Shown here piece after piece: positions 3,465 to 42,194 of a stretch of DNA of 64,000 nt (positions are counted from its first letter, which is position 1; each line of letters opens with the position of its first letter). The notes below the pieces were generated by a model, which ran no database searches, had not been told where the DNA came from, and saw only the letters and a list, made by a program, of their open reading frames with translations. Both the position numbers and the translations under genes were made by a program. The stretch spans positions 1 to 64,000 of IMG/VR virus record IMGVR_UViG_3300028832_000116, one strand, 5' to 3'. The DNA is from a virus. Its lineage: Duplodnaviria; Caudoviricetes.

Positions 3465-3656
3465 ATGAAACAAAAGACATATTGTGGTTTAAATTATAAA
3501 CAACTTAGCGATGTTATGACAACTATGTCTGGTATAGAGGAACTAAATGATTTAAACGACTATCAAAGATTAGCATTTGATATTTCGATACAATGTGTAA
3601 CTGAGGTAATGAATCGAATGCGAGATGATAAACCAATAGAATTTGAGGTCGTTTAA
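3465..3656 (+). CDS. hypothetical protein
   Basis: ORF in packed run of genes. Confidence 0.6.
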   Translation: MKQKTYCGLNYKQLSDVMTTMSGIEELNDLNDYQRLAFDISIQCVTEVMNRMRDDKPIEFEVV

Positions 3657-3948: not shown

Positions 3949-4245
3949 ATGAATATTTTTATGCTTATTAATATGCCGGTAGATGCAATTAGCGAGGCTT
4001 GCTTAACTTGTCCTGAATTGGAAATTGATATTGTTACAAAGGAATTTTATGAATTAGCATCTCCAGAAGAAGGAACAACGGAAGTTAAAAAAATAACTTA
4101 TGAGAATGTATTGCGTTGTAAACATTGCCATCGTTGTGAAATTATATTTAAGCATGGTAGTAAACAAAAAACTTCTACTAAATCCAAAACCAAACCTAAA
4201 ACAACAAAGAAAACCACAACCAGAAAAACGGTGGCGAAGAAATGA
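3949..4245 (+). CDS. Cys-rich protein with basic Lys/Thr tail
   Basis: CLTC, CKHCHRC; histone-H1-like tail. Confidence 0.65.
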   Translation: MNIFMLINMPVDAISEACLTCPELEIDIVTKEFYELASPEEGTTEVKKITYENVLRCKHCHRCEIIFKHGSKQKTSTKSKTKPKTTKKTTTRKTVAKK

Positions 4246-21600: not shown

Positions 21601-23101
21601 TGATTTAAAGAAAGAATTTCCCAAGTATCGGTTCGAGAATCATAAAAGTTATTATGGTGACGAGCTTATTGGTGAAGGTGGTCGTGTTTATGCAGAACCT
21701 GGTGGATATTATGATGTCATAACATTTGATGTAGCCAGTATGCATCCGACTAGTATTATTGTTGAGAACGGTTTTGGTCCATATACGCAGGGTTATAAGG
21801 ATTTGTATGAGGCGAGAATTGCAATCAAGCACAAAGATTATGAGAAAGCACGTAAGTTATTTAATGGAAGGCTTGCTCCATATCTTGAGAACGATGAGGA
21901 TGCTGATGACCTGGCATATGCTCTGAAGATTGCATTAAATTCGACTTATGGTATGACTGCAGCATCGTTCCAAAATCGTTTTAAGGATCCCAGAAATGTG
22001 GATAACTGGGTTGCGAAGCGCGGAGCATTATTTATGGAGAAACTTCGACTTGAAGTGCAGAAGCGTGGAGGCCATGTAATTCATATTAAGACAGATTCAA
22101 TCAAATTAGTAAAGCCTAGCAAGGAACTTCAGGATTTTGTTATTCAGTTTGGTAAAGATCATGGTTATACTTTTGAGATTGAGAGTCGGTATGAACGTAT
22201 TTGTCTTGTAAATCACGCAGTTTATATTGCATTACGGGCAAAAGATGATGAGGATTGGTTAAAAGAATGTAAAAAGGCAAAGAAAGCAGCAGAAGAGCAT
22301 GAAACGCCATATTTTGAGCCAACAAGATGGACCGCTACAGGTGCTCAGTTTGCGCATCCGTTTGTATTTAAGCATTTATTTAGCCATGAGCCGATGGAGT
22401 TCTGGGATTTTTGTGAAACAAAGACTGTTAAAACGAGTTTATATTTAGATTTGAATGAGCAACTTAAAAATGTTGAGCAAGAGGAGAAAGAGAAGAAGAA
22501 AATAGAAACGAGAATCAGAAAGTTAAATAAGGATTTATTAAAAGAGGATATTTCTGATTTAGACAAGGAAAAGATCAAAGCAGAGCTTCAGGATCTCCCG
22601 AAAGATATTTCTGTACTTGATGAGATCATTGCCGAAGGTCATCACTATTTATTTGTTGGTAAGGCTGGCGAATTTATGCCGGTGAAGCCTGGGTGCGGCG
22701 GAGGTTTATTAGTACGGAAAGAGTCTGATGGAGGATTTGGTTTTGCAACAGGAGCTAAGGGATATCGGTGGTTGGAAAGTGAAACTCTTCAGAAATTTGA
22801 TAATTGGAGAGATTATATTGACATTCGATATTTCAGAGGACTTGTTGATGAAGCAGTTGAGACAGTTAGTAAGTATGTTGACTTTGAAATGTTTGTTAAA
22901 GGTGACGAAGGGGTCATATTACCGGAAGAACATATTTTAGATGATAACATAGACCCATGGATGCTTCCGTGTAAGACAGAGAAGTACGCATATTGTTCTG
23001 ATTGTCCTGATTTTACAAATGACGAACACGGTTATTCCTGTAAACAGGGATATAAGATTACAAACACTATTTTAGGTGAAAGCAAGGAGATTTTAGTATG
23101 A
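18671..23101 (+). CDS. fused SF3 (D5-like) helicase / primase-polymerase / family B DNA polymerase with 3'-5' exonuclease
   Basis: GPQGSGKS and VAIDED; FMDFD...ELSNSGGGIH; ILDCE, GHNVVNYD, YCENDV; FDVASMHP, KIALNSTYG, IKTDS. Confidence 0.9.
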   Translation: MDFYKIEERPTRKNDHFEVYPEFIIKRSKDLMIRGGDFYVVFDKETGLWTSDKIIIQEAIDSDIEKTVNELRSQARANGEPYRYTPKYMGTFSSNQWTKFEQYVKSLPDNAKVLDQKVTFKNPESDPSKIQPYKKTDYVSKVLPYSLSEEPCEAWDHLLDVLYEPEEREKIEWAIGAILSGEASKIQKFLVFYGPQGSGKSTILNLVMKLLDGYYATFKAENLVSSGDQFGCKFLSTNPLVAIDEDTNLSRIETNATINKIASHEELEVNEKYKAQYVIKPMCMMMLGTNKPVRITDAKSGIIRRLIDIEPSGRKIKPIRKYEELIATISSQLGSVAHHCMQVYNDPKRGMHYYDDYVPERMMYRTDAFFNFMEENIEEFNDPEGISAGRLWDKWKDYCETSGIEFKRKRYEIVDEAKNYFKEFNKNPTGKHGDQRRSVFKGLILEKFTPNENRKKSNESTSELSEKLDDIFTQDSKEVLKSDKKGYSYKWIHLDKTESIFDKEFAECPAQYETGDRDHPLKYKWANCKTKLKDLETSNTHWVKGPGNLIFMDFDKHGPDGEKSLELNLKAAAEIALPKTYVELSNSGGGIHSYFYYHGNVKDLSNMFGPEIEIKSFPDDTNLSIRRRVSFCNDLPIAHISSGLPFKEEKKTMVNWDGIKDEQHLRNTINKAINKEIRPFDQEPKTVTLIKYIDGVLKDAQTKGIKYDISDLENLLYSFAASSHNHSSECINMFYSWDLIWPKERKDPSNVEKYISDYKEDAPIIILDCEVTNNLILIVYKELEPDGKAAILKNSNDRQKKCVRLYNPKPSEVEKLFDMRIVGHNVVNYDNKILYALYLGYSPHQICELSSRIINNDQSVKMYESKNISYTDTLDVSSEKKGLKKIEIEMHIPHKEMEIEWGADIPESDWERLAQYCENDVLATEAYFLSKKWQVDFKARKILAALTGMTVNDSTNNLVAQLIFGDVREPWHEFNYPDLKKEFPKYRFENHKSYYGDELIGEGGRVYAEPGGYYDVITFDVASMHPTSIIVENGFGPYTQGYKDLYEARIAIKHKDYEKARKLFNGRLAPYLENDEDADDLAYALKIALNSTYGMTAASFQNRFKDPRNVDNWVAKRGALFMEKLRLEVQKRGGHVIHIKTDSIKLVKPSKELQDFVIQFGKDHGYTFEIESRYERICLVNHAVYIALRAKDDEDWLKECKKAKKAAEEHETPYFEPTRWTATGAQFAHPFVFKHLFSHEPMEFWDFCETKTVKTSLYLDLNEQLKNVEQEEKEKKKIETRIRKLNKDLLKEDISDLDKEKIKAELQDLPKDISVLDEIIAEGHHYLFVGKAGEFMPVKPGCGGGLLVRKESDGGFGFATGAKGYRWLESETLQKFDNWRDYIDIRYFRGLVDEAVETVSKYVDFEMFVKGDEGVILPEEHILDDNIDPWMLPCKTEKYAYCSDCPDFTNDEHGYSCKQGYKITNTILGESKEILV

Positions 23102-26200: not shown

Positions 26201-29200
26201 ATGAAACGCCAGGTAAAACCCAACCAGAAGGAACAAAAGGTACTGCAAACCGATATTCCAACTGAGGAATCAGAAGTCGTTGGCGAGAAAAAGCAACGTA
26301 AGAAAGAGTTATATCATTATGGAACGCCTAGACATTCTGGAAGATATCCTTGGGGTTCTGGTGAGAATCCTTATCAAGGCGACATGGATTTTAAGGCGCA
26401 TGTCGCGAGTCTGAAACAAAGAGGATGGAGTCAAAAGGAAATTGCCAAGAGCATGAAGATGAATACTTCTCAACTTCGTGCGAAGATTGATATTGCCAGT
26501 GAGAATATTTCTAGGGGCCGCGATTCTATGATTTTTAAACTTCGCGACAAAGGTTATTCGAAGATGGCAATTTCAAGGCAACTTCAAATTCCAGAGAGTA
26601 CTGTTCGAAATGTTTTAAAAAATGTTGATAAGATCAAGACAAATTCTACTAGGAATGTTGCCGAGGATTTAAAGAAAGCTGTTGGCGAACAGAAATATGT
26701 GGATGTTGGGCATGGATGCGAAGTTCAAATGGGTAATATTTCTAAAGATAAACTTCGCCATGCAGTTGCTTTAATGCTTGAAGAAGGATATGAAATTCAG
26801 TATCATGAGCAACCTCAGATGGGTACTGGCAAATCTACAATGATGAAGATATTAGTACCAAGGGGAACGCCTTGGGCTGAGGTTGAGAAGGCTAGAAAAA
26901 ATGCTGAGATTGATTATCCTGGTTTTCATTATGAGCATGGCGACTATGATAATCCTCATAAACTTGAAACCCCTGTTGCGGTTAATGAGAAACGTGTTAA
27001 GATTATTTATCCTAAAGATGGCGGTGATAAGAAGGATGGTCTTATTGAGATCAGACCTGGCTGCGAGGATTTAAATCTTGGGCGCAATTCATATGCTCAG
27101 GTTCGTATAGCCGTAGGCGAAGGTAATGGAACTCATTTTGCTAAAGGGGTTGCTGTTTATGGTGATCCAAAAGATTTTCCTAAAGGTGTAGATATTCTGG
27201 TTAACACGAGTAAGCCAAACGATTATCCAATGATGGGTTCAAAAGATAAAACGGTATTAAAACCGATGAAAAAAGATCCCATTACTAATAATCCATTTGG
27301 TGCTAGTATTAATCAGGATGATGAAGGAGAATCAAAGCATCCCCTTCGTTATTTCCAAGCACATTACACAGGTAAGGATGGTCAGACGCATTTATCCGCA
27401 TTGAATATTGTTAATGAGCAAGGCACTTGGGATGATTGGAATAGAAATTTGTCAAGTCAATTTTTGGCGAAGCAAACAGTTCCTCTTGCTAAGCGTCAGT
27501 TATCTTTAGATGCTCGTATGCGTAATGATGAATTCGAAGAGCTTAAGACAATAAATAATCCAGTAGTTCGTAAGAATTTATTAGAAAGCTTTGCGGATAA
27601 TTGTGATTCCGCTGCTGTACATTTAAAGGCGGCTGCTTTACCTAGGCAGGCAATGCAGTTGCTTATTCCATTTACTAATATTAAAGAGGATGAGATTTAT
27701 GCACCAAATTTTCATGATGGAGAAAAGGTTTGCCTAATTCGATTTCCTCATACAGGACGTTTTGAAATTCCTGAATTGACTGTTAACAATCGTTTTCCTG
27801 ATGGTCAACGGGTTATTGGTGGTAATGATCCAACTGTAAAGCGTGATGCTGTTGGTATAAATCCTAAGGTTGCGCAGCAGTTATCTGGCGCGGATTTTGA
27901 TGGCGATACTGTTTTGGTTATTCCAAACGATAAAGGTTATGTGAGAACTCATGGGCCTTTAGAGCAGCTTGATGGATTTGCTGAAGAGATGCATGAACGT
28001 TATAAACGTCCTGCTGATTCTCCATATCAACAGATGACTCCGCATGAGAAGGGCATGCAGATGGGTTTGGTATCAAATCTTATTACTGACATGACTTTAA
28101 AAGGTGCTACAAAACCTGAGTTGGCTAGAGCAGTTAAACATTCCATGGTTATTATTGATGCCGAGAAGCATGATTTGGATTGGCGACAATCGGCTGAAGA
28201 TAATAATATTCGGCAATTATATATTAAGTATCAAGGGCGATCTCAAGGAGGAGCATCGACACTTATTTCTAAAGCCTCAAGTGAGAAAGATATTCCATAT
28301 CGTAAACCCGGCGAGACCCGAGTCGATCCAGAAACAGGAAAGACCCGGGTTTTTTATACGGATCCAAAAACCGGAGCTAAATTATGGACTACCCCTAAGC
28401 CTGGGGAAAAAGGATATAAAGAAGTTGCTAAACGTGTTTTAAAAGAAGTTAAGGACCCCATTACTGGGAAGACTCTTATTGACGAAAAGACTAAACAAAA
28501 AATAAAGGAACCTGTGCTTGACGAGAACGGAAAGATTATTTATAAAAAGGTTCCAAAAATGATAAAGAGTCAGTGGATGTATGAAGAATCTGACGCTATG
28601 AATTTATCTTCTGGTACCCAAATGGAAAATATTTATGGAGAATATGCGAACGAGATGAAATCTTTAGCAAATAAAGCTCGTCTTGAAGCTTCTCATATTC
28701 GTCCACAAAAGCAAGATATTACAGCCAAGCAAGTTTATTTTAAGGAAATTAAAGAACTTGATGCTGCTTTAGCTTTGGCTAAAGAAAATGCTCCTCGTGA
28801 ACGTAAGGCGCAAATGCTTGCTAATAAGTTATTCCAAATGAAGAAAGAAGATAATCCCGAGCTTTCTTATGATAAAGATAAAATTAAGAAAGTTAAAGGG
28901 CAGTGTCTTGAAGAAGCACGATATCGTGTTGGAGCCAAAAAGACTCTTATTGATCCTACTGATCGTCAATGGGAAGCTATTCAGGCTGGCGCTATTTCTT
29001 CTAACAAGCTTGAAGAGATCATTAAGAATTGTGATACAGATAAGCTTAAGAAACGTGCAACTCCTCGTTCTCCTAAAGGTATTCCGCCTGCTAAGATTGC
29101 TACAGCCAAGCTTAGGTTGAATCGTGGTTATTCACCTGACGAAGTTGCTATGAGTCTTGGTGTTTCTATCTCTACTCTTTATCGTGCACTTGACCTTGAT

Positions 29201-29224
29201 GGTGACGGAAAGAAAGATAGCTAA
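26201..29224 (+). CDS. single-subunit two-barrel RNA-polymerase-like protein with terminal HTH domains
   Basis: LIRFPH and LSGADFDGD (DFDGD at 27893-27907); HTH-like segments at both ends; N-terminal LYHYG tag. Confidence 0.75.
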   Translation: MKRQVKPNQKEQKVLQTDIPTEESEVVGEKKQRKKELYHYGTPRHSGRYPWGSGENPYQGDMDFKAHVASLKQRGWSQKEIAKSMKMNTSQLRAKIDIASENISRGRDSMIFKLRDKGYSKMAISRQLQIPESTVRNVLKNVDKIKTNSTRNVAEDLKKAVGEQKYVDVGHGCEVQMGNISKDKLRHAVALMLEEGYEIQYHEQPQMGTGKSTMMKILVPRGTPWAEVEKARKNAEIDYPGFHYEHGDYDNPHKLETPVAVNEKRVKIIYPKDGGDKKDGLIEIRPGCEDLNLGRNSYAQVRIAVGEGNGTHFAKGVAVYGDPKDFPKGVDILVNTSKPNDYPMMGSKDKTVLKPMKKDPITNNPFGASINQDDEGESKHPLRYFQAHYTGKDGQTHLSALNIVNEQGTWDDWNRNLSSQFLAKQTVPLAKRQLSLDARMRNDEFEELKTINNPVVRKNLLESFADNCDSAAVHLKAAALPRQAMQLLIPFTNIKEDEIYAPNFHDGEKVCLIRFPHTGRFEIPELTVNNRFPDGQRVIGGNDPTVKRDAVGINPKVAQQLSGADFDGDTVLVIPNDKGYVRTHGPLEQLDGFAEEMHERYKRPADSPYQQMTPHEKGMQMGLVSNLITDMTLKGATKPELARAVKHSMVIIDAEKHDLDWRQSAEDNNIRQLYIKYQGRSQGGASTLISKASSEKDIPYRKPGETRVDPETGKTRVFYTDPKTGAKLWTTPKPGEKGYKEVAKRVLKEVKDPITGKTLIDEKTKQKIKEPVLDENGKIIYKKVPKMIKSQWMYEESDAMNLSSGTQMENIYGEYANEMKSLANKARLEASHIRPQKQDITAKQVYFKEIKELDAALALAKENAPRERKAQMLANKLFQMKKEDNPELSYDKDKIKKVKGQCLEEARYRVGAKKTLIDPTDRQWEAIQAGAISSNKLEEIIKNCDTDKLKKRATPRSPKGIPPAKIATAKLRLNRGYSPDEVAMSLGVSISTLYRALDLDGDGKKDS

Positions 29225-31174: not shown

Positions 31175-31609
31175 ATGGCCCTCGTTAATAACAATAGCAT
31201 TCTAATGAGTGTTAAACAAATGCTGAATATTGAACCTGAAGAGATGGGGTTCGATGTTCAGATTGGGACATATATTAATGCTCAATTTATGACTTTGCAT
31301 CAACTTGGTATTGGTCCAGATGAAGGATTCTCAGTATGGGATGCTGATACAGTATGGACAGATTTCTCCACAGATAAAACGCTGCTCGAGGTTGTGAAGC
31401 AGTATGTATGCTTAAAAGTTCGAATGATGTTTGATCCACCGGCATCGTCAATTGTTTCAGATGCTATTAATAATCAAATTCACGAACTTGAATGGCGTTT
31501 AAACATTCAGGCTGAAAAAGCTTGGGAAGAGTATCCACAAGATAAAAATGAAGAGGAAACGAATTCGTCAGAAGATGATCTAGTTTCCGAGGAAGCTGGT
31601 GAACCATGA
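31175..31609 (+). CDS. head-to-tail adaptor (gp6-like), probable
   Basis: SILMSVKQML...VKQYVCLKVRMMFDPP...ELEWRL. Confidence 0.6.
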   Translation: MALVNNNSILMSVKQMLNIEPEEMGFDVQIGTYINAQFMTLHQLGIGPDEGFSVWDADTVWTDFSTDKTLLEVVKQYVCLKVRMMFDPPASSIVSDAINNQIHELEWRLNIQAEKAWEEYPQDKNEEETNSSEDDLVSEEAGEP

Positions 31610-33438
31610 AGTATTATGCCGTAACGGATGACCCGAGAGAGCTGTACCACTATGGCGTAAAAGGCATGAAGTGGGGCCAGCATATCTTTGGTGATAAACC
31701 TAAAAGCCCTGGATATCATAGAGCATCTAGAAAACTAAAGTCTTTAATGAGTAAAACTTCCAGCAGTTTAAAGAGTGTTGGAAAAGCGGCTCAGAAGTCT
31801 GTTGCTCAAATTTCGTATGATCTTAGAAAAAAGCAAGATGCGAGGTATCAGCAAAGAGTTCAAAAGAGTCAAGACAAATTTGATAAAAAAATGGTAAAGC
31901 TTGACTCTAAAATCGATAATTATTTTGCCAATAAACCGGTAAAAGATGCCAAACGAGCAGCCGCTATAAATAGTGCAAAGAATAATATCGCTGCAATTGG
32001 AAGTACAATTAAAAAAGCACCTGGCCAAATTGCTTATAATATTCGTAAACAGCAGGATTCGAGGTATGAAAAAGCTGTTCAGAAAGCGCAAGCTAGAAAT
32101 AATTTATCAAAGGCTTTATCATCCTTAGATAAAGAGGATAAATATAGAAAGCAGATTGACCGTGAACGCAAGATGGAATCTTTGCGTGAACGTCAAGCGG
32201 ATGTTCAGGCAGATAATGATCTTAAAGCATTATCTAAAGCGGTTCGAGCTGAAAAGCATATGCCGAAGTATATGCAGGAAGCTCGTACAGGAATGCTTAA
32301 ATATGGAAAGTTATCTGAAGATCAGATTGGTCGTGTTCAGGAACGTCTTGCTCTTGAAGCCCAAACTAGAAGACTGGGTAGCACAGAAGCTCCTTCATGG
32401 CGGCAGCAGAAGAAAGCAGCGCGTCGTGAAGGTTATCTTCAGGGTATTACTAAAGGTATTTCTGCTGGTATGGAAGAAGTTGGCCGTGCCAGTGTTCAGT
32501 ATGGTATCAAGAATCTTGCAAATCGTAAGAAGATGGATAATGCGTCTGAGCTTAAAGCAGAACGTGAAAAGACAGCTAATCGCATTAAGAATAAGAAGAC
32601 TCGTTCTGAAATGCGTGGAGATTTTAAACAGGATGTCTATAACGAACAGCTTAAAGCTGGTGTTAAAGCATCCGAACGTGGTGTTCCATGGCAGACTTCG
32701 AGAAAAGCGGCGCAGCGTCTTCAGGAAGCTAAGAGGATTCAAAATGAAAATCAGGGTAAACTTGAAGATGCGAATGCTGAACGCAAATTCCTTATGGATG
32801 AAAAACATGACACTATTCGTACAGAACGTAAGAATAAACTTGAAGATGCTCGTGCCGAACAAAAGTTTCTTACTGATGAAACGCATAATAAAATTCGCAA
32901 TGAACGTGAACGCCAAGAACGTCTTTCTGAAGATGAGGAAAAAGTTAAGCGTATTGGTGAGCAGATGTATAAATACGGTTTTGCTGTTCTTCCACAATAT
33001 AATAAAGATGGTAAATTTACAGGATATATGAAATATAATGCGGATGGTTCTATTGGTAAGGATAAAGCTGCTGCAGGTTTGGGTGAAATTTATAAGCAAG
33101 ATCATGATCGAGCCGAAGCTGAAAGGCAGCGTATAGAAGCTGAGGCAGCTAGAGAAAGAGCACGTGCCGAAGCTGAAGCTAAAGCAGAAAAACAGAGACA
33201 AGAGCATGATGAACAGGTTAAAAAAGATGAATTAAGAAGACAAAGAGAAGCACGTGAAGCTAGAAAAGAAACGGTTGAAGCTATAAGAATAATGGATAAA
33301 GCTCCTGATCGTTATAGAGCAATGGATAGAGCTTCTAATCGTTCTCATCCTAGCATGCTTAACCAATTTTTAAATCAGTTGGCAGTAGAACGTGAATATG
33401 TTAAACCTAAAAAACCAAAGAGGCGGCATAAAGGTTAA
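31606..33438 (+). CDS. HYG-tag basic coiled-coil protein
   Basis: ELYHYGVKGMKWG; Lys/Arg-rich; two pairs of internal repeats. Confidence 0.8.
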   Translation: MKYYAVTDDPRELYHYGVKGMKWGQHIFGDKPKSPGYHRASRKLKSLMSKTSSSLKSVGKAAQKSVAQISYDLRKKQDARYQQRVQKSQDKFDKKMVKLDSKIDNYFANKPVKDAKRAAAINSAKNNIAAIGSTIKKAPGQIAYNIRKQQDSRYEKAVQKAQARNNLSKALSSLDKEDKYRKQIDRERKMESLRERQADVQADNDLKALSKAVRAEKHMPKYMQEARTGMLKYGKLSEDQIGRVQERLALEAQTRRLGSTEAPSWRQQKKAARREGYLQGITKGISAGMEEVGRASVQYGIKNLANRKKMDNASELKAEREKTANRIKNKKTRSEMRGDFKQDVYNEQLKAGVKASERGVPWQTSRKAAQRLQEAKRIQNENQGKLEDANAERKFLMDEKHDTIRTERKNKLEDARAEQKFLTDETHNKIRNERERQERLSEDEEKVKRIGEQMYKYGFAVLPQYNKDGKFTGYMKYNADGSIGKDKAAAGLGEIYKQDHDRAEAERQRIEAEAARERARAEAEAKAEKQRQEHDEQVKKDELRRQREAREARKETVEAIRIMDKAPDRYRAMDRASNRSHPSMLNQFLNQLAVEREYVKPKKPKRRHKG

Positions 33439-35186
33439 TGCTGTATCTTAGCAATACAGCCACGCCAAAGTATTTTGCACAGTTTCGTGATCTGGTTGTA
33501 CGCGGTGAAATTCCGGTATGTAAAGAAATTTCAATGGAAATGTACCGGATTCAAGAACTTATAGATAATCCTGGGGTTTATTATGATCCTCAGCCAGTTG
33601 AGTGTTTTATAGATTTTTGTGAAGCAGAGATGTGTTTAACAGATGGTTCCGATTTAACACTTCTCGATTCATTCAAACTTTGGGCTGAGGAAGTATTTGG
33701 ATGGTATTATTTTGTTGAAAAAAGTGTTCCCGTCGTGAGTCCTGACGGTCATAGCGTTCATTATGAAACTCGCACGGTTAAGAAGCGCTTAATTACAAAA
33801 CAGTTTCTAATTGTTGGTCGAGGCGCGGCTAAATCGATTTATGCCAGTTGCATTCAGTCGTTCTTTCTGAATATCTATCCAGAAACAACTGATCAGATTG
33901 TTACCGCACCAACGATTAGACAATCAGATGAAACTTTGGGCCCGATTCGTACAGCAATTGTTCGAGCTCGTGGCCCTTTGTTTAAATTCCTTACTGAGGG
34001 AAGTTTACAAAACACGACAGGATCAAAAGCAAACCGCGTGAAATTAGCTTCCACGAAATTGGGAATACAAAATTTTATTAATGGCTCTATTATCGAACCT
34101 CGTCCAATGACAATCGATAAACTTCAGGGCCTTCGTCCTAAGGTGGCTACGATTGACGAATGGCTGTCGGGAGATATTCGCGAAGACGTCATAGGAGCTA
34201 TTGAACAGGGTGCTTCCAAACTTGATGATTACTTTATTTTAGCAACTTCGTCAGAAGGTACTGTTCGAAATGCTAGTGGTGATGATATCAAAATGGAATT
34301 ACTCAGTATTCTTAAGGGCGAGTATTATAATCCTCATGTTAGCATCTTCTATTATAAGTTAGATGATGTTAAAGAAGTTGGAAATCCGAATATGTGGCTT
34401 AAAGCTAACCCGAATCTCGGCAAAACGGTTAGCTATGAGGCTTATCAGCTTGATGTAGAAAGAGCAGAGAAAGCCCCGTCCGCTAGGAATGATATACTGG
34501 CAAAACGATTTGGAATTCCGCTCGAGGGTTATACGTATTTCTTTACTTATAACGAAACCCTCCCCCACAATCATCGTGACTTTTGGCAAATGCCTTGTTC
34601 TATGGGCATTGATCTTTCACGTGGCGATGACTTTTGTGCTTTCACATTCTTATTCCCGATTGGTGATGGTAGTTTTGGTGTTAAGACGCGTTGCTATATT
34701 TCAGCAGCAACTTATGCCAATTTGCCACAGTCGACCAGAAATAAGTATGATGAATTCATATCCGAGCATAGTCTTCAGGTATTAGATGGAACAATACTTG
34801 ATATGATGGATGTCTATGACGATCTCGATAGATTTATCGAGGAATCTAAATATGATGTTCGTTGTGTTGGTTATGACGTTTATAATGCTAAAGATTTTAT
34901 TGCTCGGTGGGCAAACGAAAATGGTCCATTTGGCATAGTTAAAGTTATACAGGGTGCAAAGACTGAGAGCGTTCCTTTAGGAGAGATAAAGAAACTTGCT
35001 GAAGAACGTGCTCTTATATTTGATCAGCAAATGATTACCTACACAATGGGTAATTGTATAACTTTAGTTGATACAAATGGTAACCGAAAACTTTACAAGA
35101 AACGTAACGATCAAAAGATCGACTCTGTAGCAGCTATGATGGACGCATTAGTTGCTTACAAGATTAATCGAGAGGCGTTCGATTGA
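33438..35186 (+). CDS. terL: terminase large subunit
   Basis: VGRGAAKS, ATIDEW, GIDLSRGDD, KIDSVAA. Confidence 0.92.
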   Translation: MLYLSNTATPKYFAQFRDLVVRGEIPVCKEISMEMYRIQELIDNPGVYYDPQPVECFIDFCEAEMCLTDGSDLTLLDSFKLWAEEVFGWYYFVEKSVPVVSPDGHSVHYETRTVKKRLITKQFLIVGRGAAKSIYASCIQSFFLNIYPETTDQIVTAPTIRQSDETLGPIRTAIVRARGPLFKFLTEGSLQNTTGSKANRVKLASTKLGIQNFINGSIIEPRPMTIDKLQGLRPKVATIDEWLSGDIREDVIGAIEQGASKLDDYFILATSSEGTVRNASGDDIKMELLSILKGEYYNPHVSIFYYKLDDVKEVGNPNMWLKANPNLGKTVSYEAYQLDVERAEKAPSARNDILAKRFGIPLEGYTYFFTYNETLPHNHRDFWQMPCSMGIDLSRGDDFCAFTFLFPIGDGSFGVKTRCYISAATYANLPQSTRNKYDEFISEHSLQVLDGTILDMMDVYDDLDRFIEESKYDVRCVGYDVYNAKDFIARWANENGPFGIVKVIQGAKTESVPLGEIKKLAEERALIFDQQMITYTMGNCITLVDTNGNRKLYKKRNDQKIDSVAAMMDALVAYKINREAFD

Positions 35187-35187: not shown

Positions 35188-35910
35188 ATGAGTGAGTATT
35201 ATGGAGTAACAACGCCTACCGATGATTACCTGGCGCATTATGGCGTAAAAGGTATGAAATGGGGTGTACGAAGAGCTCTTGCTACAGGGAATGCTAAAGC
35301 ATTAGCAAGACAGTATTCAAAGGCAAGAAGAAAGCTCGATAAGTTAAATAAGAAATCTGATATTAAACAGCAAAAGAAAGAAATGTCAAAAGCAATAAAA
35401 CGTGCTGCAATAGGTGCAGGAGTTGTTGGTGCTGGATTAGGTATTAATATTGGTTCTAAAAAGTTGTTTAAGAAGGATGCTATTAAAAAACCAATTACCA
35501 TTCACGAAAATGTTATAAACGAGAAAATTATTCCTGAAAAAATAATTAGAGAGACAATTATTCCAGAAAAAGTAATTAAAGAAAAATATACAATGTGGGA
35601 TAATGTTCCAACACAAACATTTAACAAATCTACAGTAAGTGGTGTTAGCTCTAAGTTTAAAAGTGGAACAAAAAAAGCAAATGTCCGTAATGGAATTGGG
35701 AATGCTGCTAAAATTGCTAGTGTTGCTGCTCTTGGTTATACAGGATATAATATTGGAAAAGGTATTGCATCAGTATATAGACAGACATCAAAAGGCCATG
35801 TTAAAGCTGTAGTAAAACGTGATGATTGGCGCAATCATATGCTTGATACTTTTAAAGGAACCGAATATTCTAATTTTCCTAATATACAAAAGAAGAAAAA
35901 GAAGAGGTGA
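35188..35910 (+). CDS. HYG-tag protein (paralogue A)
   Basis: YLAHYGVKGMKWGVRR; two Gly/Ala helices; FKGTEY and basic tail. Confidence 0.8.
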   Translation: MSEYYGVTTPTDDYLAHYGVKGMKWGVRRALATGNAKALARQYSKARRKLDKLNKKSDIKQQKKEMSKAIKRAAIGAGVVGAGLGINIGSKKLFKKDAIKKPITIHENVINEKIIPEKIIRETIIPEKVIKEKYTMWDNVPTQTFNKSTVSGVSSKFKSGTKKANVRNGIGNAAKIASVAALGYTGYNIGKGIASVYRQTSKGHVKAVVKRDDWRNHMLDTFKGTEYSNFPNIQKKKKKR

Positions 35911-35915
35911 TTATT

Positions 35916-36638
35916 ATGTCTGAATATTATGGCATAAATAATCTCTCTGATTTTTTTGTGCATTATGGTATAAAAGGTATGAAGTGGGGTATTCGTAAGA
36001 AACAATCTTCTGGTCAAATTCTGTTTGTATCTGGAAGTTCTAGAACGCAAGATAAAAATTCGCCATATTATAGACGCAAATTACCAAAAAACGTTCGAAA
36101 AGTTTTGAAATCTTCAATAAAATCTGGAGATAAAATAGTTGTTGGCGATGCCCCTGGAATAGATCGTCAAACTCAGGATTATTTAAAGAAAAAGCATTAT
36201 AAAAATGTAGAAGTTTATAGTCCTGGAACTAGCGTTCGTTATTTAGCAAATCCTAAATGGAAGGCAAATATGATTAATGATAAAGATCATGAGCCGATGA
36301 GCCCCGAATGGCTTGCAAAGAAAGATATAGTCATGACGAATAAGTCTACAAAAGGGCTTGCTGTTATTTTAGACGAAGGGTCTAAAGCTACTCGAAATAA
36401 TGTACAGCGAATGATTAAGCAGAAAAAAAGTATGAAAATTTTTGAGCTTCATAATACTAATAAAGATCGCATAAAACCTTTAGTTAAGGGATTTGCTCAC
36501 CCTGATGATCAAGAGATTATTTATTGGGGAATTAATGATCCAAAGAAAAAGATTGGAAAAGGTTGGGATGTGAATGGTCATAATTATGCTGTTCAGTATC
36601 GAGGCCTTGTCGATCGAAGAACTAGAAATAAGTTGTAA
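35916..36638 (+). CDS. HYG-tag protein with SLOG (YspA/DprA-like) domain
   Basis: FVHYGIKGMKWG then LFVSGS, IVVGDAPGID, KDIVM...LAVILDEGSKAT. Confidence 0.65.
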   Translation: MSEYYGINNLSDFFVHYGIKGMKWGIRKKQSSGQILFVSGSSRTQDKNSPYYRRKLPKNVRKVLKSSIKSGDKIVVGDAPGIDRQTQDYLKKKHYKNVEVYSPGTSVRYLANPKWKANMINDKDHEPMSPEWLAKKDIVMTNKSTKGLAVILDEGSKATRNNVQRMIKQKKSMKIFELHNTNKDRIKPLVKGFAHPDDQEIIYWGINDPKKKIGKGWDVNGHNYAVQYRGLVDRRTRNKL

Positions 36639-36662: not shown

Positions 36663-37166
36663 ATGGAAGATATGAAATTATCAGCTCCATGGATTACTTT
36701 TGTTCATGAGCTTGAAGCGCTTTTTTCAGAAGATCTCGAAGTGAAAGTAAAGTATGACGAAACAAATAATACTGTAAAGCTTTACGTTGCAGATTCTGAT
36801 AAGGCCATGGCTCTTGAAAAATTAATTCCTGCTAAAAAAGATTTTGGAAATGTTTCTATAGCTATTAGCGTTATTCCTCCGAATGTTGAGGAAATGACAA
36901 AAGAGGATTTATTTAATAAAGCTTTCCGTGGTAATCCTGCGGTATCTTTTACGGCTTCTTATGACAATCCTCTCGGCCATTTAACTTATATTGTTTTCGA
37001 AAAGAAGGTTGTTCAGTTTTTTAATGATCAGTTAGACGATATTAATGGTAATAAATCTATGCTTTTTCAGGAAATTGCATATGATGTGTTCGGATCTGAT
37101 CATGCAGTATTTTATTGTACAGATGCTGATAGAAATTTATCTAAACCCCTTGGTGAATGGCCGTAA
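36663..37166 (+). CDS. hypothetical protein
   Basis: AAAGGA RBS, 167 aa. Confidence 0.75.
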   Translation: MEDMKLSAPWITFVHELEALFSEDLEVKVKYDETNNTVKLYVADSDKAMALEKLIPAKKDFGNVSIAISVIPPNVEEMTKEDLFNKAFRGNPAVSFTASYDNPLGHLTYIVFEKKVVQFFNDQLDDINGNKSMLFQEIAYDVFGSDHAVFYCTDADRNLSKPLGEWP

Positions 37167-37189: not shown

Positions 37190-37882
37190 ATGAATTATTA
37201 TGCAGTTGAACGCTCCACGGATCACCTGGAGCATTATGGCGTAAAAGGTATGCGGTGGGGCGTACGAAGGGCTCTTGCTACAGGAAACGCTAGAGCATTA
37301 GCAAGGCATTATCGTAAGGCAGCGAAAAAATTAGCTAAGCTTCAGAATATTGGTAATCATGCTGGTCGTTCGAAAGCAAAAGCTATTGCATATGGAACTG
37401 CTGCTGCTGGAACCGGCGCATTAGCTATTGGCGGAACTGGATTAGCTTCTAAAGTTTTTAAATATGGCGCCGCAGGAGCTAAAACATTAAGAACAAAAAG
37501 ATTAAAAGAAGATTTGCTTTCTAAAGGTTTAAAAGGCATAGAAACTGGTGCTGGAAAAGCTGCAGGAGCAATTGAAAATCTTGGTAAAGGTGAAACTAGA
37601 TTTTTGTTAAATAGGCCAGTTATTGGTAAAAATGGCACTTTGGAAAAGAAAGCCATTTTGGACAAAAAAATTTCCAATAATACTTTGTTCCGTCTTGGTG
37701 CTTTGGGTGCAACTGCTGGTTTTGCTGCTAAATCTGCTCAGCATGCTTATCGTGCTAGAAATGCAGATGCATATAGAGAAAAAGCAGAGCGATTTAAAGA
37801 AGCTATGGATGATGTTTTTGCTGGAACTGATTATGAAGGTCATTATGAAAAAGCGCGTCGTAGAAGACGTAATTATGGTTGA
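37190..37882 (+). CDS. HYG-tag protein (paralogue B)
   Basis: HLEHYGVKGMRWGVRR; FAGTDY and Arg tail. Confidence 0.8.
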   Translation: MNYYAVERSTDHLEHYGVKGMRWGVRRALATGNARALARHYRKAAKKLAKLQNIGNHAGRSKAKAIAYGTAAAGTGALAIGGTGLASKVFKYGAAGAKTLRTKRLKEDLLSKGLKGIETGAGKAAGAIENLGKGETRFLLNRPVIGKNGTLEKKAILDKKISNNTLFRLGALGATAGFAAKSAQHAYRARNADAYREKAERFKEAMDDVFAGTDYEGHYEKARRRRRNYG

Positions 37883-37896
37883 TGGAGGAGAATACA

Positions 37897-38721
37897 ATGA
37901 ATAACGAATATTATGGAGCTCCTACAACTCCGACTTCTGATTATCTTGCTCATTATGGCATTAAAGGTATGAAGTGGGGAGTTCGGAAAGCGGTTGCTAG
38001 TGGAAGTTCTAGGAGACTTGCTCGTCAGTATGCTAAGGCTTCTAAGAAATTAGCTAAATTAGAAAAACGGGCAGCTTCTGGTAAGAAATATGCGAAGCGT
38101 GCTGCTTTAATGGGTGCTGGCGCTGCTGGTATGGGAGCGGTTGCTGCTACTGGTACTGCTGGGATTTCTAACGCTATCGGCGCTGCTGGTACCGCATTTT
38201 CTCAGGGTGCTAAGGGTGCTGGTGGTTTAATGCAGCGTGTTGGTGGCGCTATGCAGCGTAGAGGTATTCGTGGTGGTGGTCGTATGACTGCTGCAGGTAA
38301 GGCTGTTTCTGGTCTTGGCAAGCATAATGCTAGTGGTGTTGCCGGACGTGTTGCAAATTGGGGCAAGCAGTCCCATGATGTTGCTACTGCTTCTAGGAAT
38401 ATTAGTGGTGAAGTAGCAAGGAGAATGGGCAATGCCGGTATTAAAGGTCAAAGTACAGTAAGAACTATAGGTAATAGAACTGCTGATACACTTGAAAAGT
38501 ATGGCCATGGCCGTATTTCTAATAGTGGTCTTGTTCGTCTTGGTGCAGCGGCTGCCGGTGCTGGTTTAGCTGGTGGTGCTGCATATAATGCTTATCGTGC
38601 TGCTACGACAAAACGTGCTGGTAGGAAAGCTGCTGAATTCCGTAAAGAAATGAATAAAGCCTTCGCTGGTACGCAGTATGCGAACGGTGGAGCTCAGAAA
38701 CGTAAGCGTCGTCGTGGATAA
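37897..38721 (+). CDS. HYG-tag protein (paralogue C)
   Basis: YLAHYGIKGMKWGVRK; Ala/Gly-rich; FAGTQY and basic tail. Confidence 0.8.
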   Translation: MNNEYYGAPTTPTSDYLAHYGIKGMKWGVRKAVASGSSRRLARQYAKASKKLAKLEKRAASGKKYAKRAALMGAGAAGMGAVAATGTAGISNAIGAAGTAFSQGAKGAGGLMQRVGGAMQRRGIRGGGRMTAAGKAVSGLGKHNASGVAGRVANWGKQSHDVATASRNISGEVARRMGNAGIKGQSTVRTIGNRTADTLEKYGHGRISNSGLVRLGAAAAGAGLAGGAAYNAYRAATTKRAGRKAAEFRKEMNKAFAGTQYANGGAQKRKRRRG

Positions 38722-38762: not shown

Positions 38763-40190
38763 ATGGCCTCAATCATGCAAAGGCTCCAGCACGCCTGGAA
38801 TGCCTTTCGAAATAACAGAGATCCTACTGAAGATATAGGAGCGGTTTATAATAAACCTGGCCGTTCTGTAATAGGTGGATACGCAAGTTCTATGCGACCG
38901 GATCGTTCTCGTTTAACTCGGGGCAAAGAAAGATCTATTGTTACTGCAATTTATAATCGCATTGCGGTGGATGTTTCTCAGGTGAAGATTCAGCATGTCA
39001 AACTTGATGAATCACAGAGATTCAAAGAAGTTATGAAGTCTGGTCTTAATGAATGCCTTACGTTAAGCGCAAATATCGATCAAACCGGAAGGCAACTGAT
39101 TCAGGATGCTGTACTGAGCATGTTTGATGAAGGCTGTGTCGCTTTGGTTCCCGTCGATACGGATATCAATCCAAAATTAAGTGGCGGGTATGATGTATTG
39201 TCCATTCGTACAGGTAAAGTTACACAGTGGTATCCTGAAGCTGTTAGAATACTTTTGTATAACGAAGAAAAAGGAATAAAGGAGGAAGTTACTCTTCCGA
39301 AATCGATGGTTTCGATTATCGAGAATCCTTTTTATGCTGTAATGAATGAGCCAAGTTCCACTCTTCAAAGGCTTCTTAGAAAGCTTATTTTAAAGGATAT
39401 GTTGGACGAGAAGAGCGGAGCTAATAAACTCGATTTGATTTTCCAGCTTCCCTATTCTATTAAAACTGAAATGCGGATGGCAGAAGCCGAAAAGAGAAAG
39501 AAGAAGATTGAAGAACAATTAGTGGATTCACAGTATGGCATCGCTTATATTGATGCTACCGAAAAGATTACACAGTTGAATCGTCCGGTTGAAAATAATC
39601 TTCTTGAACAAATCAGGGATTTAACAGATCAGTTATATGCACAGCTTGGTTTAACAGCGGAGATCATGAACGGTACTGCTGATGAAAAAGCCATGCTTAA
39701 TTATAACAATCGAATTATTGAGCCTATTCTTTCGGCACTTTGCAATGAAATGAAGAGGAAATTCCTGACAAAGACAGGTAGAACGCAAGGACAGTCTATT
39801 ATGTACTTCCAGGATCACTTTAAGCTTGCAACAATCGATAAGATTGCTGATCTTGGTGATAAGATGATCCGTAATGAAATTATGACCGCTAATGAAATGC
39901 GTTCTAAGCTTGGTTTACCGCCTGCTGATGATCCTGCTGCAGACAAACTTCGGAATCCTAATATGCCGCAATCAGAAGATAGTGGAGAACAGCCAGAAGA
40001 ACCTGTAGATCCTGAAGAGCTCGAGGAAGCGAAAAAAGTCCTCCTTGATGCGGGTCTTACAGAAAAGGATCTAAGTGAGCTTACCGATGCCGAGGTCGTT
40101 GAGCTTGCTGAAAGGTATAAGACTGGCAATCTTGAGGATGAAGAGGAAGAAGCTCCACCTGGAGAACCAGAAGAACAGAAGACTGGATAA
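38763..40190 (+). CDS. portal protein
   Basis: AIYNRIAVDVS...MTANEMRSKLGLPP; position; acidic C-terminal extension. Confidence 0.88.
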   Translation: MASIMQRLQHAWNAFRNNRDPTEDIGAVYNKPGRSVIGGYASSMRPDRSRLTRGKERSIVTAIYNRIAVDVSQVKIQHVKLDESQRFKEVMKSGLNECLTLSANIDQTGRQLIQDAVLSMFDEGCVALVPVDTDINPKLSGGYDVLSIRTGKVTQWYPEAVRILLYNEEKGIKEEVTLPKSMVSIIENPFYAVMNEPSSTLQRLLRKLILKDMLDEKSGANKLDLIFQLPYSIKTEMRMAEAEKRKKKIEEQLVDSQYGIAYIDATEKITQLNRPVENNLLEQIRDLTDQLYAQLGLTAEIMNGTADEKAMLNYNNRIIEPILSALCNEMKRKFLTKTGRTQGQSIMYFQDHFKLATIDKIADLGDKMIRNEIMTANEMRSKLGLPPADDPAADKLRNPNMPQSEDSGEQPEEPVDPEELEEAKKVLLDAGLTEKDLSELTDAEVVELAERYKTGNLEDEEEEAPPGEPEEQKTG

Positions 40191-40220: not shown

Positions 40221-42194
40221 ATGTCAATGGATAGACCTTATGACATTTCCGGTTGGGCAACGATGTGTAACATCAAATGCACTGATGGCCGGGTGATTCG
40301 TCCTAATGCCTTCATTGACAATGACGGTGAAGAAGTCCCCATGGTTTATCAGCATTGCCATACTGACCCTGAAAATGTTCTTGGTCATGCTCTGCTGGAG
40401 AATCGTGATGAGGGCGTCTATTGCTATTGTTGGTTCAATAAAAATCCGAAGGCGCAGGCAACGAAGAATGCAATCGAAAATGGTGATCTTAAACAGTTTT
40501 CGATTTATGCAAATCAGCTTGTGCAGCATGGAAACGATGTTGTTCACGGTTCCATTAAAGAAGTCAGTATTGTCATGAGCGGTGCCAATAAAGGTGCTCG
40601 GATTGAGAATCTGAATTTTGCGCATAGCGATGGTTCTTATAACACCGATGATGAAGAGGCATTTATTTATACAAAACCACAGAAAATCTTATGCCATTCA
40701 GAGTTGGAGGAAGATGACACGGAGGATGACGACATGAAAAATGATACGCTCGATGTCCAGGCAGTATTGGACGGTATGGATGAAGAGCAGCTGGCTGTTG
40801 TTCAGGCTCTTTATGAACAGGGACAGATTGATGCCCTTAATGAAGTAGTCGGCGAAGATGATGAAGAAGAAATCGAGGACGAAGACTACGAAGATGAAGA
40901 AGATGTAGTTGACGAAGACGATTACGAAGATGAAGACGTCGATGATGAAGAAGGCATCTATGACGAAGAAGACTTCGAAGACGAAGAGGATGAAGAAGAA
41001 TATGAAGATCCTGAAGACTTCGAAGACGAAGATGAAGAATACGATGAAGATTATGAAAGCGAAGGCAATTTAGCAGTCGCTCATTCTGATTTTGGAGGTT
41101 ATGATCCCATGAAATACAATGTTTTTGATGGTAGTGCTGTTGAGGTTAATGATGCGCAGAACACGTTAAGCCATTCCGAGATTCAGGAGATTTTTGCGGA
41201 TGCTGCTAAAGATCGTCTTGGCAGTCTGAAAGCTTCTGTGCTGGCTCATGCTCAGGATTATGGTATTGAACAGATCGATTGGCTGTTCCCGGATGCTCGT
41301 GAACTGAACAATCCCCCGTCTTTTATTCAGCGGGACATGGGGTGGGTAAGTAAAGTTATGCAGGGTACCCGCCACACTCCCTTTAGCCGTATTAAGACTA
41401 CGTTTGCTGATATTACTGCTGATGAAGCTCGGGCGAAGGGTTACGTCAAAGGTAATCGGAAACTGGAAGAAGTCTTCACTTTGCTGAAGAGAACGACTGA
41501 TCCGCAGACCATTTACAAAAAGCAGAAGCTGGATCGTGACGATGTCGTTGATATTACTGACTTCGACGTTGTTGCCTGGCTGAAGAGCGAAATGCGGATG
41601 ATGCTGGATGAGGAAATTGCTCGTGCTATCCTGATTGGTGATGGTCGGGCTACTTCCAGTGATGATAAGATTTCCGAGTCTCATGTTCGTAGCATCTTCC
41701 GGGATGATGATCTGTATGTTGTTCGTAAGGAACTGAAGGAAGTTGCTGGCGAAGCCAAAGCGAAGACCTTCATTAAGACCGTTCGGAAAGCTTGGAAGGA
41801 TTATAAGGGTTCTGGCAATGCGGTTGCTTTCGTGACTGAAGATTGGCTGAGCGAGCTGCTTCTGCTGGAAGATGGCATTGGACATTTCCTGTATCCCACC
41901 AAGGAGACGGCTGCTAATGTTCTGGGCGTTCGTGAGATTATTACTGTGCCGGTTATGGCTGATGCTTCTACGACTCGCCATGATACTACTGCCAATAAGG
42001 ATTACAAGCCTGCTGCGATTATTGTTAATCTGAGCGACTATAATGTTGGCGCTGATAAGGGTGGCTCTGTCAATATGTTCGAAGACTTCGATATCGATTA
42101 CAACCAGCAGAAATACCTGATTGAAACCCGTTGCAGCGGTGCTCTGGTGAAGCCCTACAGCGCGATCGTTATCGAGGAAGAAGTAAACCCTTAA
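40221..42194 (+). CDS. prohead protease - acidic scaffold - major capsid polyprotein
   Basis: N-terminal HK97-type protease (GWAT, YQH, FSI, EVSIV...GAN); D/E-rich linker; capsid-like C-half. Confidence 0.88.
   Translation: MSMDRPYDISGWATMCNIKCTDGRVIRPNAFIDNDGEEVPMVYQHCHTDPENVLGHALLENRDEGVYCYCWFNKNPKAQATKNAIENGDLKQFSIYANQLVQHGNDVVHGSIKEVSIVMSGANKGARIENLNFAHSDGSYNTDDEEAFIYTKPQKILCHSELEEDDTEDDDMKNDTLDVQAVLDGMDEEQLAVVQALYEQGQIDALNEVVGEDDEEEIEDEDYEDEEDVVDEDDYEDEDVDDEEGIYDEEDFEDEEDEEEYEDPEDFEDEDEEYDEDYESEGNLAVAHSDFGGYDPMKYNVFDGSAVEVNDAQNTLSHSEIQEIFADAAKDRLGSLKASVLAHAQDYGIEQIDWLFPDARELNNPPSFIQRDMGWVSKVMQGTRHTPFSRIKTTFADITADEARAKGYVKGNRKLEEVFTLLKRTTDPQTIYKKQKLDRDDVVDITDFDVVAWLKSEMRMMLDEEIARAILIGDGRATSSDDKISESHVRSIFRDDDLYVVRKELKEVAGEAKAKTFIKTVRKAWKDYKGSGNAVAFVTEDWLSELLLLEDGIGHFLYPTKETAANVLGVREIITVPVMADASTTRHDTTANKDYKPAAIIVNLSDYNVGADKGGSVNMFEDFDIDYNQQKYLIETRCSGALVKPYSAIVIEEEVNP

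Follow-up and report, generated by a model that had tools for sequence, protein, structure and literature searches.

A predicted SLOG-fold protein behind a portable N-terminal peptide in the head-gene module of an uncultured phage

We analyzed the first 64 kb (64,000 nucleotides, here referred to as the window) of a 100,880-base Caudoviricetes record (IMG/VR IMGVR_UViG_3300028832_000116, rated complete by CheckV), and focused on one gene at 35916..36638 on the + strand. Its product of 240 amino acids (aa) carries a short N-terminal peptide, the DUF7211 tag, ahead of a Rossmann-like core, and an earlier note made from the letters had described it as a SLOG-domain enzyme grafted onto such a tag. 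According to modelling and structure comparison, the core almost certainly adopts the SLOG fold, and the tag is very probably a portable module shared by otherwise unrelated proteins. From its place among the head genes the protein is probably virion cargo. As to its function, our tentative preference is a DprA-like DNA binder that is loaded into the head and co-injected, where packaging, injection and ligand are all things we infer.

The gene starts with ATG at 35916 and its stop codon occupies 36636-36638. A longer call of the open reading frame (ORF) runs from a GTG (35907..36638). The ATG is the likely start, because a GAGG at 35904-35907, in overlap with the 3' end of the preceding tagged gene, lies 8 nucleotides before it, and because the closest homologues begin with MSEYYG or MNEYYG, in agreement with this position. 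Every string that the earlier note had quoted was recovered from the translation, namely HYGIKGMKWGIRKK at aa 16-29, LFVSGS at aa 36-41, IVVGDAPGID at aa 74-83, KKDIVM at aa 135-140 and LAVILDEGSKAT at aa 148-159. The protein can be divided into three parts. First, the leader of aa 1-30 (35916..36005, + strand) opens with MSEYYG and continues into the DUF7211 peptide DFFVHYGIKGMKWGIRKK. Second, the core of 155 residues (aa 31-185; 36006..36470, + strand) is delimited by modelling, structure searches and conservation. Third, a basic tail of 55 residues (aa 186-240; 36471..36635, + strand), with an isoelectric point (pI) of 9.8 and a low-confidence model, is common to the closest relatives only, as most relatives stop near aa 185. 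The pI is 10.05 for the whole protein and 10.1 for the core.

The AlphaFold2 (AF2) model was built on 60 sequences, hand-picked for diversity and short length from 268 retrieved. Its predicted local distance difference test scores were 91-98 for aa 31-180, modelled as alternating strands and helices, 49-67 for the leader, predicted to be disordered, and 47-66 for the last 55 residues. The model was compared with the PDB and with the viral models of BFVD by Foldseek, and with 48,161 chains by a separate, Foldseek-independent search. In the 48,161-chain search, YpsA was the top match (Z 13.3 over 151 aa), followed by TM1055 (12.6), DprA (12.0, 11.7 and 11.4), ShosA (11.9) and a molybdenum-cofactor carrier (11.6); lower ranks were taken by TT1887, LOG proteins, TRPM2 and the SLOG domain of ThsA (8.4 and 7.9). 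Judging from their titles, ranks 1-22 (Z 13.3 to 7.7) are presumably all members of the SLOG superfamily, and unrelated Rossmann folds begin near Z 7.5. Foldseek found four PDB matches at E<=1e-3, all of them DprA or YpsA (best E 1.8e-4 and 4.7e-4, respectively), and next in its list were ShosA (E 1.4e-3), TRPM2 N-terminal domains and LOG proteins. In BFVD there were 24 matches at E<=1e-3, the named ones being DprA-like, DUF2493, YspA-SLOG and 'Rossmann-fold nucleotide-binding' proteins, together with one protein like D29 gp61 and two entries that are uncharacterised. A similar domain is also contained in 'addiction module antidote' clusters found by an Atlas structure search. At the level of sequence, a search of solved structures gave 0 matches at E<=10, and a profile search of the same kind gave two irrelevant ones (E 0.97 and 3.4). 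Thus the model and all of the structure searches (PDB, BFVD and the 48,161 chains) agree on the SLOG fold that the earlier note had proposed.

SLOG is part of the TIR-DrHyd-SLOG Rossmannoid class, as set out in section 3.3.3 of PMC9503650. In the core, the motifs follow the order SGSS loop (after strand 1), GDAPGID (strand 2), PG..R108 (strand 3), KD137..M and EGSxAT..N162, and the Rossmann-like strings quoted in the earlier note coincide with the most conserved columns of the family. Thirteen positions are invariant in the 60-sequence alignment, namely F37, G40, G77, G81, D83, Q87, V98, R108, W115, K136, D137, T159 and N162. The loop S39-G40-S41-S42 after strand 35-40 contains the invariant G40 together with S39 and S42, which are at least 90% conserved, and P103, G104 and R108 are conserved after strand 98-103. 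The G-S of the first loop is invariant in tagless relatives as well. Residues that do not vary between tagged and tagless forms are G40-S41, G77-D78-(A-P)-G81-x-D83, V98, R108, D137..M140 and S156, while D153 and N162 are nearly invariant across both. The tagged family has two conserved extras, an insertion of 10 residues that follows the first loop and a hairpin bearing R108, W115 and K116. We take the LOG motif PGGxGTxxE to carry the catalytic glutamate of that family, whose equivalent here would be Asn162; the stretch aligned to it reads D-E-G-S-K-A-T-R-N-N, an assignment that follows the order of the motifs rather than a superposition. We place the core in the DprA / YpsA-YspA branch of the fold, with a nucleotide-binding pocket that is apparently intact.

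Family models give few links. The SLOG models of Pfam do not match the protein at E<=1, and TIGR00732 (dprA) reaches 11.1 bits (E 0.16) relative to a cut-off of 191.15. Of the 60 members in the alignment, 10 are matched by PF02481 (DprA; best E 3.7e-4) and four, weakly, by PF10686 (YspA; best E 0.016); one distant relative, L064, passes the PF02481 cut-off with 34.9 bits against 29.6. The PADLOC model PD-Lambda-4_B covers aa 38-203 (E 3.7e-4) and matches only one of the 60 members, as does the PADLOC ShosA model, and phrog_289 ('GTP-binding domain') covers aa 53-190 with an E of 4.7e-8. The YpsA model PF06908 has no match to the query and is not among the families listed for the 60 members, and the ThsA models of PADLOC match neither the query nor any of the 60. 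We therefore classify the protein as an unclassified SLOG family, as there is no Pfam SLOG match, the links to DprA and YspA are weak and the LOG glutamate is replaced by Asn162. It is nearest to DprA and ShosA by sequence and to YpsA and YspA by structure, and is not a member of DprA, YpsA, LOG or ThsA proper.

Comparison with the known systems shows what is shared and what is particular. DprA/Smf (PF02481; PDB 3uqz and 4ljk) has the same fold (Z 12.0 and 11.4; Foldseek E 1.8e-4), the same motif order (GS loop after strand 1, G-x-A-x-G-I-D and GS..T loop) and the repeated weak sequence matches mentioned above. The DprA-type layout described in the ShosA/DprA account of PMC11961720 consists of a SAM, a Rossmann-like and an extra domain, whereas the tagged protein has neither the SAM nor the extra C-terminal domain, its core being flanked by only 30 disordered and 55 low-confidence residues. 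The phage cargo tag, the head operon, the 10-residue insertion and the R108/W115/K116 hairpin also set the tagged family apart from DprA/Smf. YpsA (PF06908; PDB 2nx2), the best structural match, shares the G-x-D motif that opens helix 2. Many of the BFVD matches are viral YspA/DUF2493 proteins (PF10686) from phages and giant viruses; those are described as stand-alone, whereas the tagged family sits in a head module. ShosA (PDB 8zva; Z 11.9) has a basic surface and binds single-stranded DNA (ssDNA), which recalls the basic core here; however, it is a host protein of 308 aa with a SAM domain and a paired toxin, and ours is a 240-aa phage late protein without a toxin neighbour. The ThsA SLOG domain of Thoeris (PDB 7uxs and 7uxt; Z 8.4 and 7.9) belongs to the same superfamily fold and binds a nucleotide-derived signal in the equivalent pocket, but it is a weaker match than DprA, YpsA or ShosA, and ThsA itself is an effector of the host that carries SIR2, a domain absent here.

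The family is large. In total, 682 of 887 candidate proteins match at E<=1e-3, nearly all of them metagenomic, and the sole named entry is a 'hypothetical protein' from a metagenome-assembled genome (MAG) of Bacteroidota. In a library clustered at 50% identity, 1248 representatives match at E<=1e-3, 201 at E<=1e-10 and 111 at E<=1e-30. Our own hidden Markov model finds the core in all 150 representatives listed. As for the tag, 76 of these 150 carry it at most 40 aa upstream of the core and 20 carry it further upstream with another region in between; the remaining 54 are without it by the strict pattern, some being cut at the N-terminus and some having variant tags that Pfam recognises. A typical member is about 180 aa long and consists of tag and core, and relatives reach 1131 aa. 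Among 185,579 species genomes there are only nine distant relatives. The tagless relatives are stand-alone proteins of 127-219 aa, 25-33% identical, from other phages and bacterial genomes. The core pI exceeds 9 in 50 of 60 family members (median 9.74), and ranges from 5.2 to 9.85 in the tagless relatives. Moreover, 12 core positions are lysine or arginine in at least 80% of the 60 family cores.

The tag itself is recognised by Pfam as DUF7211 (PF23847) at aa 10-31 (E 7.8e-10; 38.4 bits, gathering cut-off 27). A search of the whole 100,880-base genome gives exactly five matches, located at 31.6-38.0 kb around the genes of the terminase large subunit (TerL) and portal, with the copy of the SLOG gene at 35940-36008 (41.2 bits); the other four begin the ORFs at 31606, 35188, 37190 and 37894, as Pfam also finds. 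The pattern H[YFH]G[VI]KGM[KR]WG likewise occurs five times in the six frames of the window, always on the + strand at ORF starts, and is absent from each of 100 shuffles. The tagged proteins, five in number, are without exception basic (pI 10-11.6), and TerL, portal and the capsid fusion have pI values of 4.2-5.1. The five DNA stretches that encode the tag have a mean column identity of 63% and lack a long identical run, which gives no support to tag DNA as a recombination linker.

The tag is also found with other payloads. When 31 long SLOG relatives were scanned, 26 contained DUF7211, with up to four copies per protein, and the SLOG core stood beside a GNAT acetyltransferase in four of the 31, a papain-fold glutamine deamidase in two, DUF5662 in three, DUF6582 in three, P-loop kinase-like domains in four and a transglutaminase-like domain in one. 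The kinase is fused directly to the core in the relatives P0128 and P0149. This is the same logic of delivering several effectors as in the polyvalent and MuF-fused proteins of PMC5512222, where the term 'SLOG' occurs 0 times, since SLOG is combined in the long relatives with domains of the GNAT, papain-like deamidase, P-loop kinase and DUF5662 types. The window protein has a single payload domain, whereas relatives of up to 1131 aa qualify, and the joints are marked by DUF7211 instead of MuF or metallopeptidase domains. In cultured phages, the tag stands mostly ahead of small unknown proteins, and its 13-residue peptide L-x-H-Y-G-V-K-G-M-K-W-G-V is nearly unchanged across Streptomyces phage Rima, Microbacterium phage Count and Rhodococcus phage ReqiPoco6. 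In ReqiPoco6 gp015 (2260-3876 of its locus, L054), a 2H/LigT phosphoesterase domain (E 1e-6) comes first, DUF7211 stands inside the protein at aa 330-352 and a further region follows, so that here an enzyme is the payload on the same tag. A literature search for DUF7211 or the KGMKWG peptide returned no paper naming either. The modularity of the tag, of which the earlier note had called this gene the clearest sign, is well supported: the tag stands on five unrelated basic proteins here and beside GNAT, deamidase, kinase, DUF5662 and 2H domains in relatives, and the SLOG core also occurs without it.

The genes around the SLOG gene are those of the phage head. In the window, long ORFs are nearly all on the + strand and the GC content is 31-45%. 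The module starts with a tagged basic protein of 610 aa (31606..33438, + strand; pI 10.0; DUF7211 E 1e-8) just upstream of TerL (33438..35186, + strand), which is 69% identical to the TerL of Rima. A tagged basic protein of 240 aa follows (35188..35910, + strand; pI 10.3; DUF7211 E 2.1e-14), which contains a hydrophobic stretch rich in Gly and Ala and ends in poly-Lys; its gene precedes the SLOG gene. Downstream are two tagged basic proteins of the paralogue type, one of 230 aa with a poly-Arg end (37190..37882, + strand; pI 10.4; DUF7211 E 1.7e-11) and one of 275 aa ending in KRKRRR (37894..38721, + strand; pI 11.6; DUF7211 E 3e-13). The portal protein (38763..40190, + strand) is 51% identical to that of Rima, and the last gene (40221..42194, + strand) encodes a fusion of 657 aa, in which an S78 prohead protease, an acidic spacer and an HK97-type capsid protein are joined (Pfam Peptidase_S78 and Phage_capsid), 42-48% identical to Rima gp14. 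The three proteins at 35188-35910, 37190-37882 and 37894-38721 have Gly/Ala-rich hydrophobic middles and end in F-[AK]-G-T-x-Y followed by poly-Lys/Arg; these paralogues are candidates for membrane-active ejection proteins. Amid the tagged cluster there is also an untagged acidic protein of 167 aa (36663-37166, + strand; pI 4.6), which matches no family of Pfam, PHROG, NCBIfam or PADLOC. It was rejected as a partner of the SLOG protein, with homologues in only two distinct other loci (L017 and the duplicates L002/L003) of the 51 described below.

This arrangement is conserved. We compared 51 related viral loci, which include at least seven near-duplicate pairs and in which the tag was scored by a regular expression. 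The SLOG ORF is present in 50 of them and tagged in 36, and in 35 of these 36 TerL lies in the same locus; TerL is at most 1.5 kb away in 29 loci and at most 100 bp away in 19. At least one further tagged ORF occurs in 35 of the 51. The 14 loci with an untagged SLOG ORF include all of the distant ones, and TerL is nearby in only five of them. The module of TerL, tagged genes, portal and protease-capsid fusion is also found in Rima, Count, ReqiPoco6 and Lactococcus phage 1706. There are three tagged genes in Rima, located between TerL and portal, five in Count, around TerL, and seven in ReqiPoco6; 1706 gp07, labelled 'structural protein' in GenBank, contains DUF7211 twice (E 6.9e-11). A phage of 31-45% GC thus shares its head module with high-GC actinophages. 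According to the preprint 10.1101/842583, a structural block of HNH endonuclease, connector, TerL, portal and capsid maturation protease is common to actinophages and Firmicutes phages including 1706; the tag is not mentioned in the parts of the preprint that bear on this block.

Taken with the capsid gene, these data suggest how the tag might act. The capsid fusion contains 156 Asp and Glu residues (pI 4.2) and four x-H-S-[DE] sites at aa 135, 159, 288 and 318, located at the borders of the protease domain and of the spacer. Two to five such sites occur in all seven distinct complete fusions from related loci, where L-S-H-S-E is conserved directly before the capsid domain, and Rima keeps the histidine at three sites. 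The tag opens with [L/F]-x-H-Y-G, and Leu-x-His also recurs in the spacer of the capsid precursor. As modelled, the disordered leader may resemble what a docking or cleavage peptide would be. The tagged SLOG protein would be produced together with the head proteins, the leader would direct it to the procapsid of a head like those of 1706 and the actinophages, and the S78 protease may trim the leader at Leu-x-His ahead of YG. A prediction of the complex between the portal and leader aa 1-35 (portal alignment of 14 sequences, without controls) scored 0.01 and 0.00 relative to a mark of 0.32 and weighs neither way.

A parallel is offered by phage T4, in which the internal proteins IPI-III and Alt have capsid-targeting sequences that are cut off by the prohead protease. 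In both cases a short N-terminal leader stands on unrelated basic proteins encoded with head genes, here with a possible protease site, and a layout of this kind (shared leader, head-gene setting) is seen for five genes in our genome, in 35 of the 51 related loci and in four cultured phages. However, the sequence is different, the head is of another type (HK97-like, with an S78 protease-capsid fusion), and cleavage and packaging are putative here. We regard the tagged SLOG protein as probably virion cargo.

As for the function after delivery, the DNA-binding reading that we tentatively prefer runs as follows. The strongly basic protein would travel in the head with the DNA and be delivered when the phage infects a cell. 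Once inside, it would bind nucleic acid through the SLOG pocket and the 12 conserved basic positions, most likely, by analogy with DprA and ShosA, single-stranded or end regions of the incoming phage DNA, and the bound protein would shield the DNA from host nucleases or aid its repair or circularisation. That the ligand is DNA rather than a free nucleotide is a guarded preference of ours, somewhat below an even chance, with several reasons behind it. The nearest characterised relatives by sequence, DprA and ShosA, bind ssDNA; according to PMC11961720, ShosA prefers ssDNA over double-stranded DNA and has to bind it in order to neutralise its toxin. The core is very basic, while the tagless relatives are not consistently so. 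The catalytic glutamate of LOG is missing. A few capsid-borne copies would be enough for a role at DNA ends and not for a sponge of signal molecules. Beside the terminase lies an HNH endonuclease gene. HNH-terminase pairs mark cos-type packaging, which hints at cohesive single-stranded ends that the SLOG protein could cover. The earlier note had left the choice between a sponge or hydrolase of nucleotide signals and a DNA-protecting protein; in our assessment, the latter is at least as likely as a signal hydrolase.

Several observations weigh against a DprA-like DNA binder carried in the virion. The residues invariant from tagged to tagless forms are polar ones of pocket type (D78, D83, R108, D137, S156 and N162), equally fit for a small ligand. 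The basic charge may reflect a DNA-filled head instead of DNA binding, because all five tagged proteins are basic. The SAM and C-terminal domains of DprA and ShosA are missing, the score is far under the DprA cut-offs (11.1 versus 191 bits), and the top structural match is YpsA, which is no known DNA binder, though DprA is only about 1 Z unit lower. Two distant tagless relatives are joined to DUF4326, which is predicted to process molecules derived from ADP-ribose (ADPR) in the account given by PMC9503650. One is a phage protein (contig L046, 5956-6672) with DUF4326 at its C-terminus (E 1e-13), a form with relatives in 568 phage records, some of them labelled 'DNA processing protein'; the other is a protein of 1112 aa from a MAG of Acidobacteriota (L060, 5569-8907) with an N-terminal DUF4326 (E 2.3e-11). 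When 50,697 phage records were searched by tblastn, the whole protein found nothing at 1e-5 and the core nothing at E<=1; by this search, none of the cultured phages in the collection carries the SLOG core. In addition, the structural label of 1706 gp07 is a GenBank annotation, and proteins of ReqiPoco6 and ReqiPepy6 were named 'virion structural protein' by similarity to gp07.

The alternative that survives best, possible though somewhat doubtful and close behind the DNA-binding reading, is that the injected protein binds or processes nucleotide-derived immune signals and so blunts TIR or Thoeris-like defences on arrival. Its pocket would bind, or cleave the N-glycosidic bond of, messengers of ADPR type, such as isomers of cyclic ADPR (cADPR), His-ADPR or toxins derived from NAD. 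It is in favour of this alternative that YpsA is the top match (Z 13.3) and that the ThsA SLOG domain bound to 3'cADPR was also matched (Z 8.4), as are the DUF4326 fusions of distant relatives, the pocket residues kept invariant in tagged and tagless forms, and the other payloads of the tag, which are enzymes of anti-signal type such as the 2H/LigT domain of ReqiPoco6 gp015. Viral SLOG proteins are predicted to degrade ADPR-derived signals in PMC9503650, but in the passages concerned this function is itself a prediction. Furthermore, the ThsA models of PADLOC match 0 of the 60 members, ThsA is structurally a weaker match than DprA, ShosA and YpsA, and no Macro or DUF4326 partner was found when the phage's own genome was searched. 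The position of the LOG-type glutamate is taken by the invariant Asn162, and a non-catalytic sponge would need many copies, beyond what a capsid could supply. The boldest form of this idea, which we consider improbable, is that DUF7211 serves as a portable address, and perhaps as a cleavage site as well, loading any payload into capsids of the 1706/actinophage type, and that the protein would be the first known SLOG to be co-injected, destroying TIR-made alarms of ADPR type or blocking their sensors before phage expression.

Equally improbable in our view is a protein that acts only inside the head or in its assembly and does nothing once ejected, which would condense DNA, provide counter-ions for the acidic spacer or give scaffolding-like help; alternatively, the tag would be a protease or regulatory site and the protein would stay in the producing cell. 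The tagged proteins are indeed all basic, the spacer of the capsid fusion is extremely acidic and the gene lies within the late head operon. However, a role of charge would not call for a pocket that is kept in more than 200 divergent clusters as well as in tagless relatives. The domains that relatives carry on the tag (GNAT, deamidase, kinase and 2H) are those of typical effector enzymes, and one tag carrier, 1706 gp07, is annotated as structural.

A mimic of the ShosA antitoxin, which would replace the host antitoxin of ShosTA-like defences and restrain the damage done by the toxin, is very unlikely, although ShosA is a near-top structural match (Z 11.9; Foldseek E 1.4e-3), PD-Lambda-4_B spans the core (E 3.7e-4) and a similar domain occurs in the 'addiction module antidote' clusters of the Atlas: each of the two PADLOC models is matched by only one of the 60 members and the SAM domain is absent. 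Since ShosA works through DNA binding and repair, this idea largely merges into the DNA-binding reading. Least probable of all is a late cytoplasmic nucleotide N-glycosidase of LOG type, tied for example to a PurA/PurZ-like base pathway, for although LOG-family structures were matched (Z 9.4-12.6), the phage has an adenylosuccinate-synthetase-like gene and P-loop kinases are fused to SLOG in P0128 and P0149, the gene lies in the head module and not among the replication genes, the LOG glutamate position is an asparagine, and a PurA/PurZ-like gene occurs in just two of ten near-complete related records that carry SLOG, which makes the tie to that gene weak, and we rejected it.

Other genes in the window are of interest in their own right. 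The adenylosuccinate-synthetase-like gene (4242-5399, + strand) matches PF00709 (E 4e-37) and phrog_1211, '2-aminooxy adenylosuccinate synthetase' (E 1e-65). It is PurZ-like and may point to the use of 2-aminoadenine by the phage; the model that was used is not specific for PurZ, since all 14 control genomes had a match to it in their own PurA. A protein of 1476 aa (18671-23101, + strand) has a primase-helicase-like N-terminus (DUF5906 and a phrog DNA primase) fused to a DNA polymerase (phrog_4210, E 0). The gene at 26201-29224 (+ strand) encodes 1007 aa with a full-length match to phrog_4291, 'RNA-dependent RNA polymerase' (E 0), helix-turn-helix domains at both ends and the motif G-A-D-F-D-G-D, and its product may be a virion-borne RNA polymerase. 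Its N-terminus resembles a degenerate tag (..L-Y-H-Y-G-T...W-G-S-G), to which the DUF7211 model gives no match.

Phage SLOG proteins are, to our knowledge, common, and we know of none that has been characterised. Viral SLOG proteins, effectors packaged in heads and the DUF7211 entry are already on record separately, and the new part is the SLOG payload on the tag. Where PMC9503650 enumerates head-packaged domains, it names ART, Macro, NADAR, Nudix and 2H among them but not SLOG, and its account of phage SLOG proteins treats them as stand-alone. Here, a large family (1248 clusters at E<=1e-3), only from uncultured phages, carries SLOG behind a peptide that marks proteins of the head module in phages from Lactococcus to Streptomyces. 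Loading is directly testable, since the tag occurs in phages that are in culture (Rima, Count, ReqiPoco6 and 1706). If the tag is a loading signal, its presence would serve as a simple and testable rule to tell which proteins are brought into the cell by these phages, and a DprA-like or signal-processing activity would be present at the first moment of infection. Were the improbable reading of a signal-destroying cargo true, capsids of this type could be loaded through the tag with proteins of choice, and the family, with its more than 200 clusters, would amount to a large and unstudied group of cargo proteins that pre-empt host defence.

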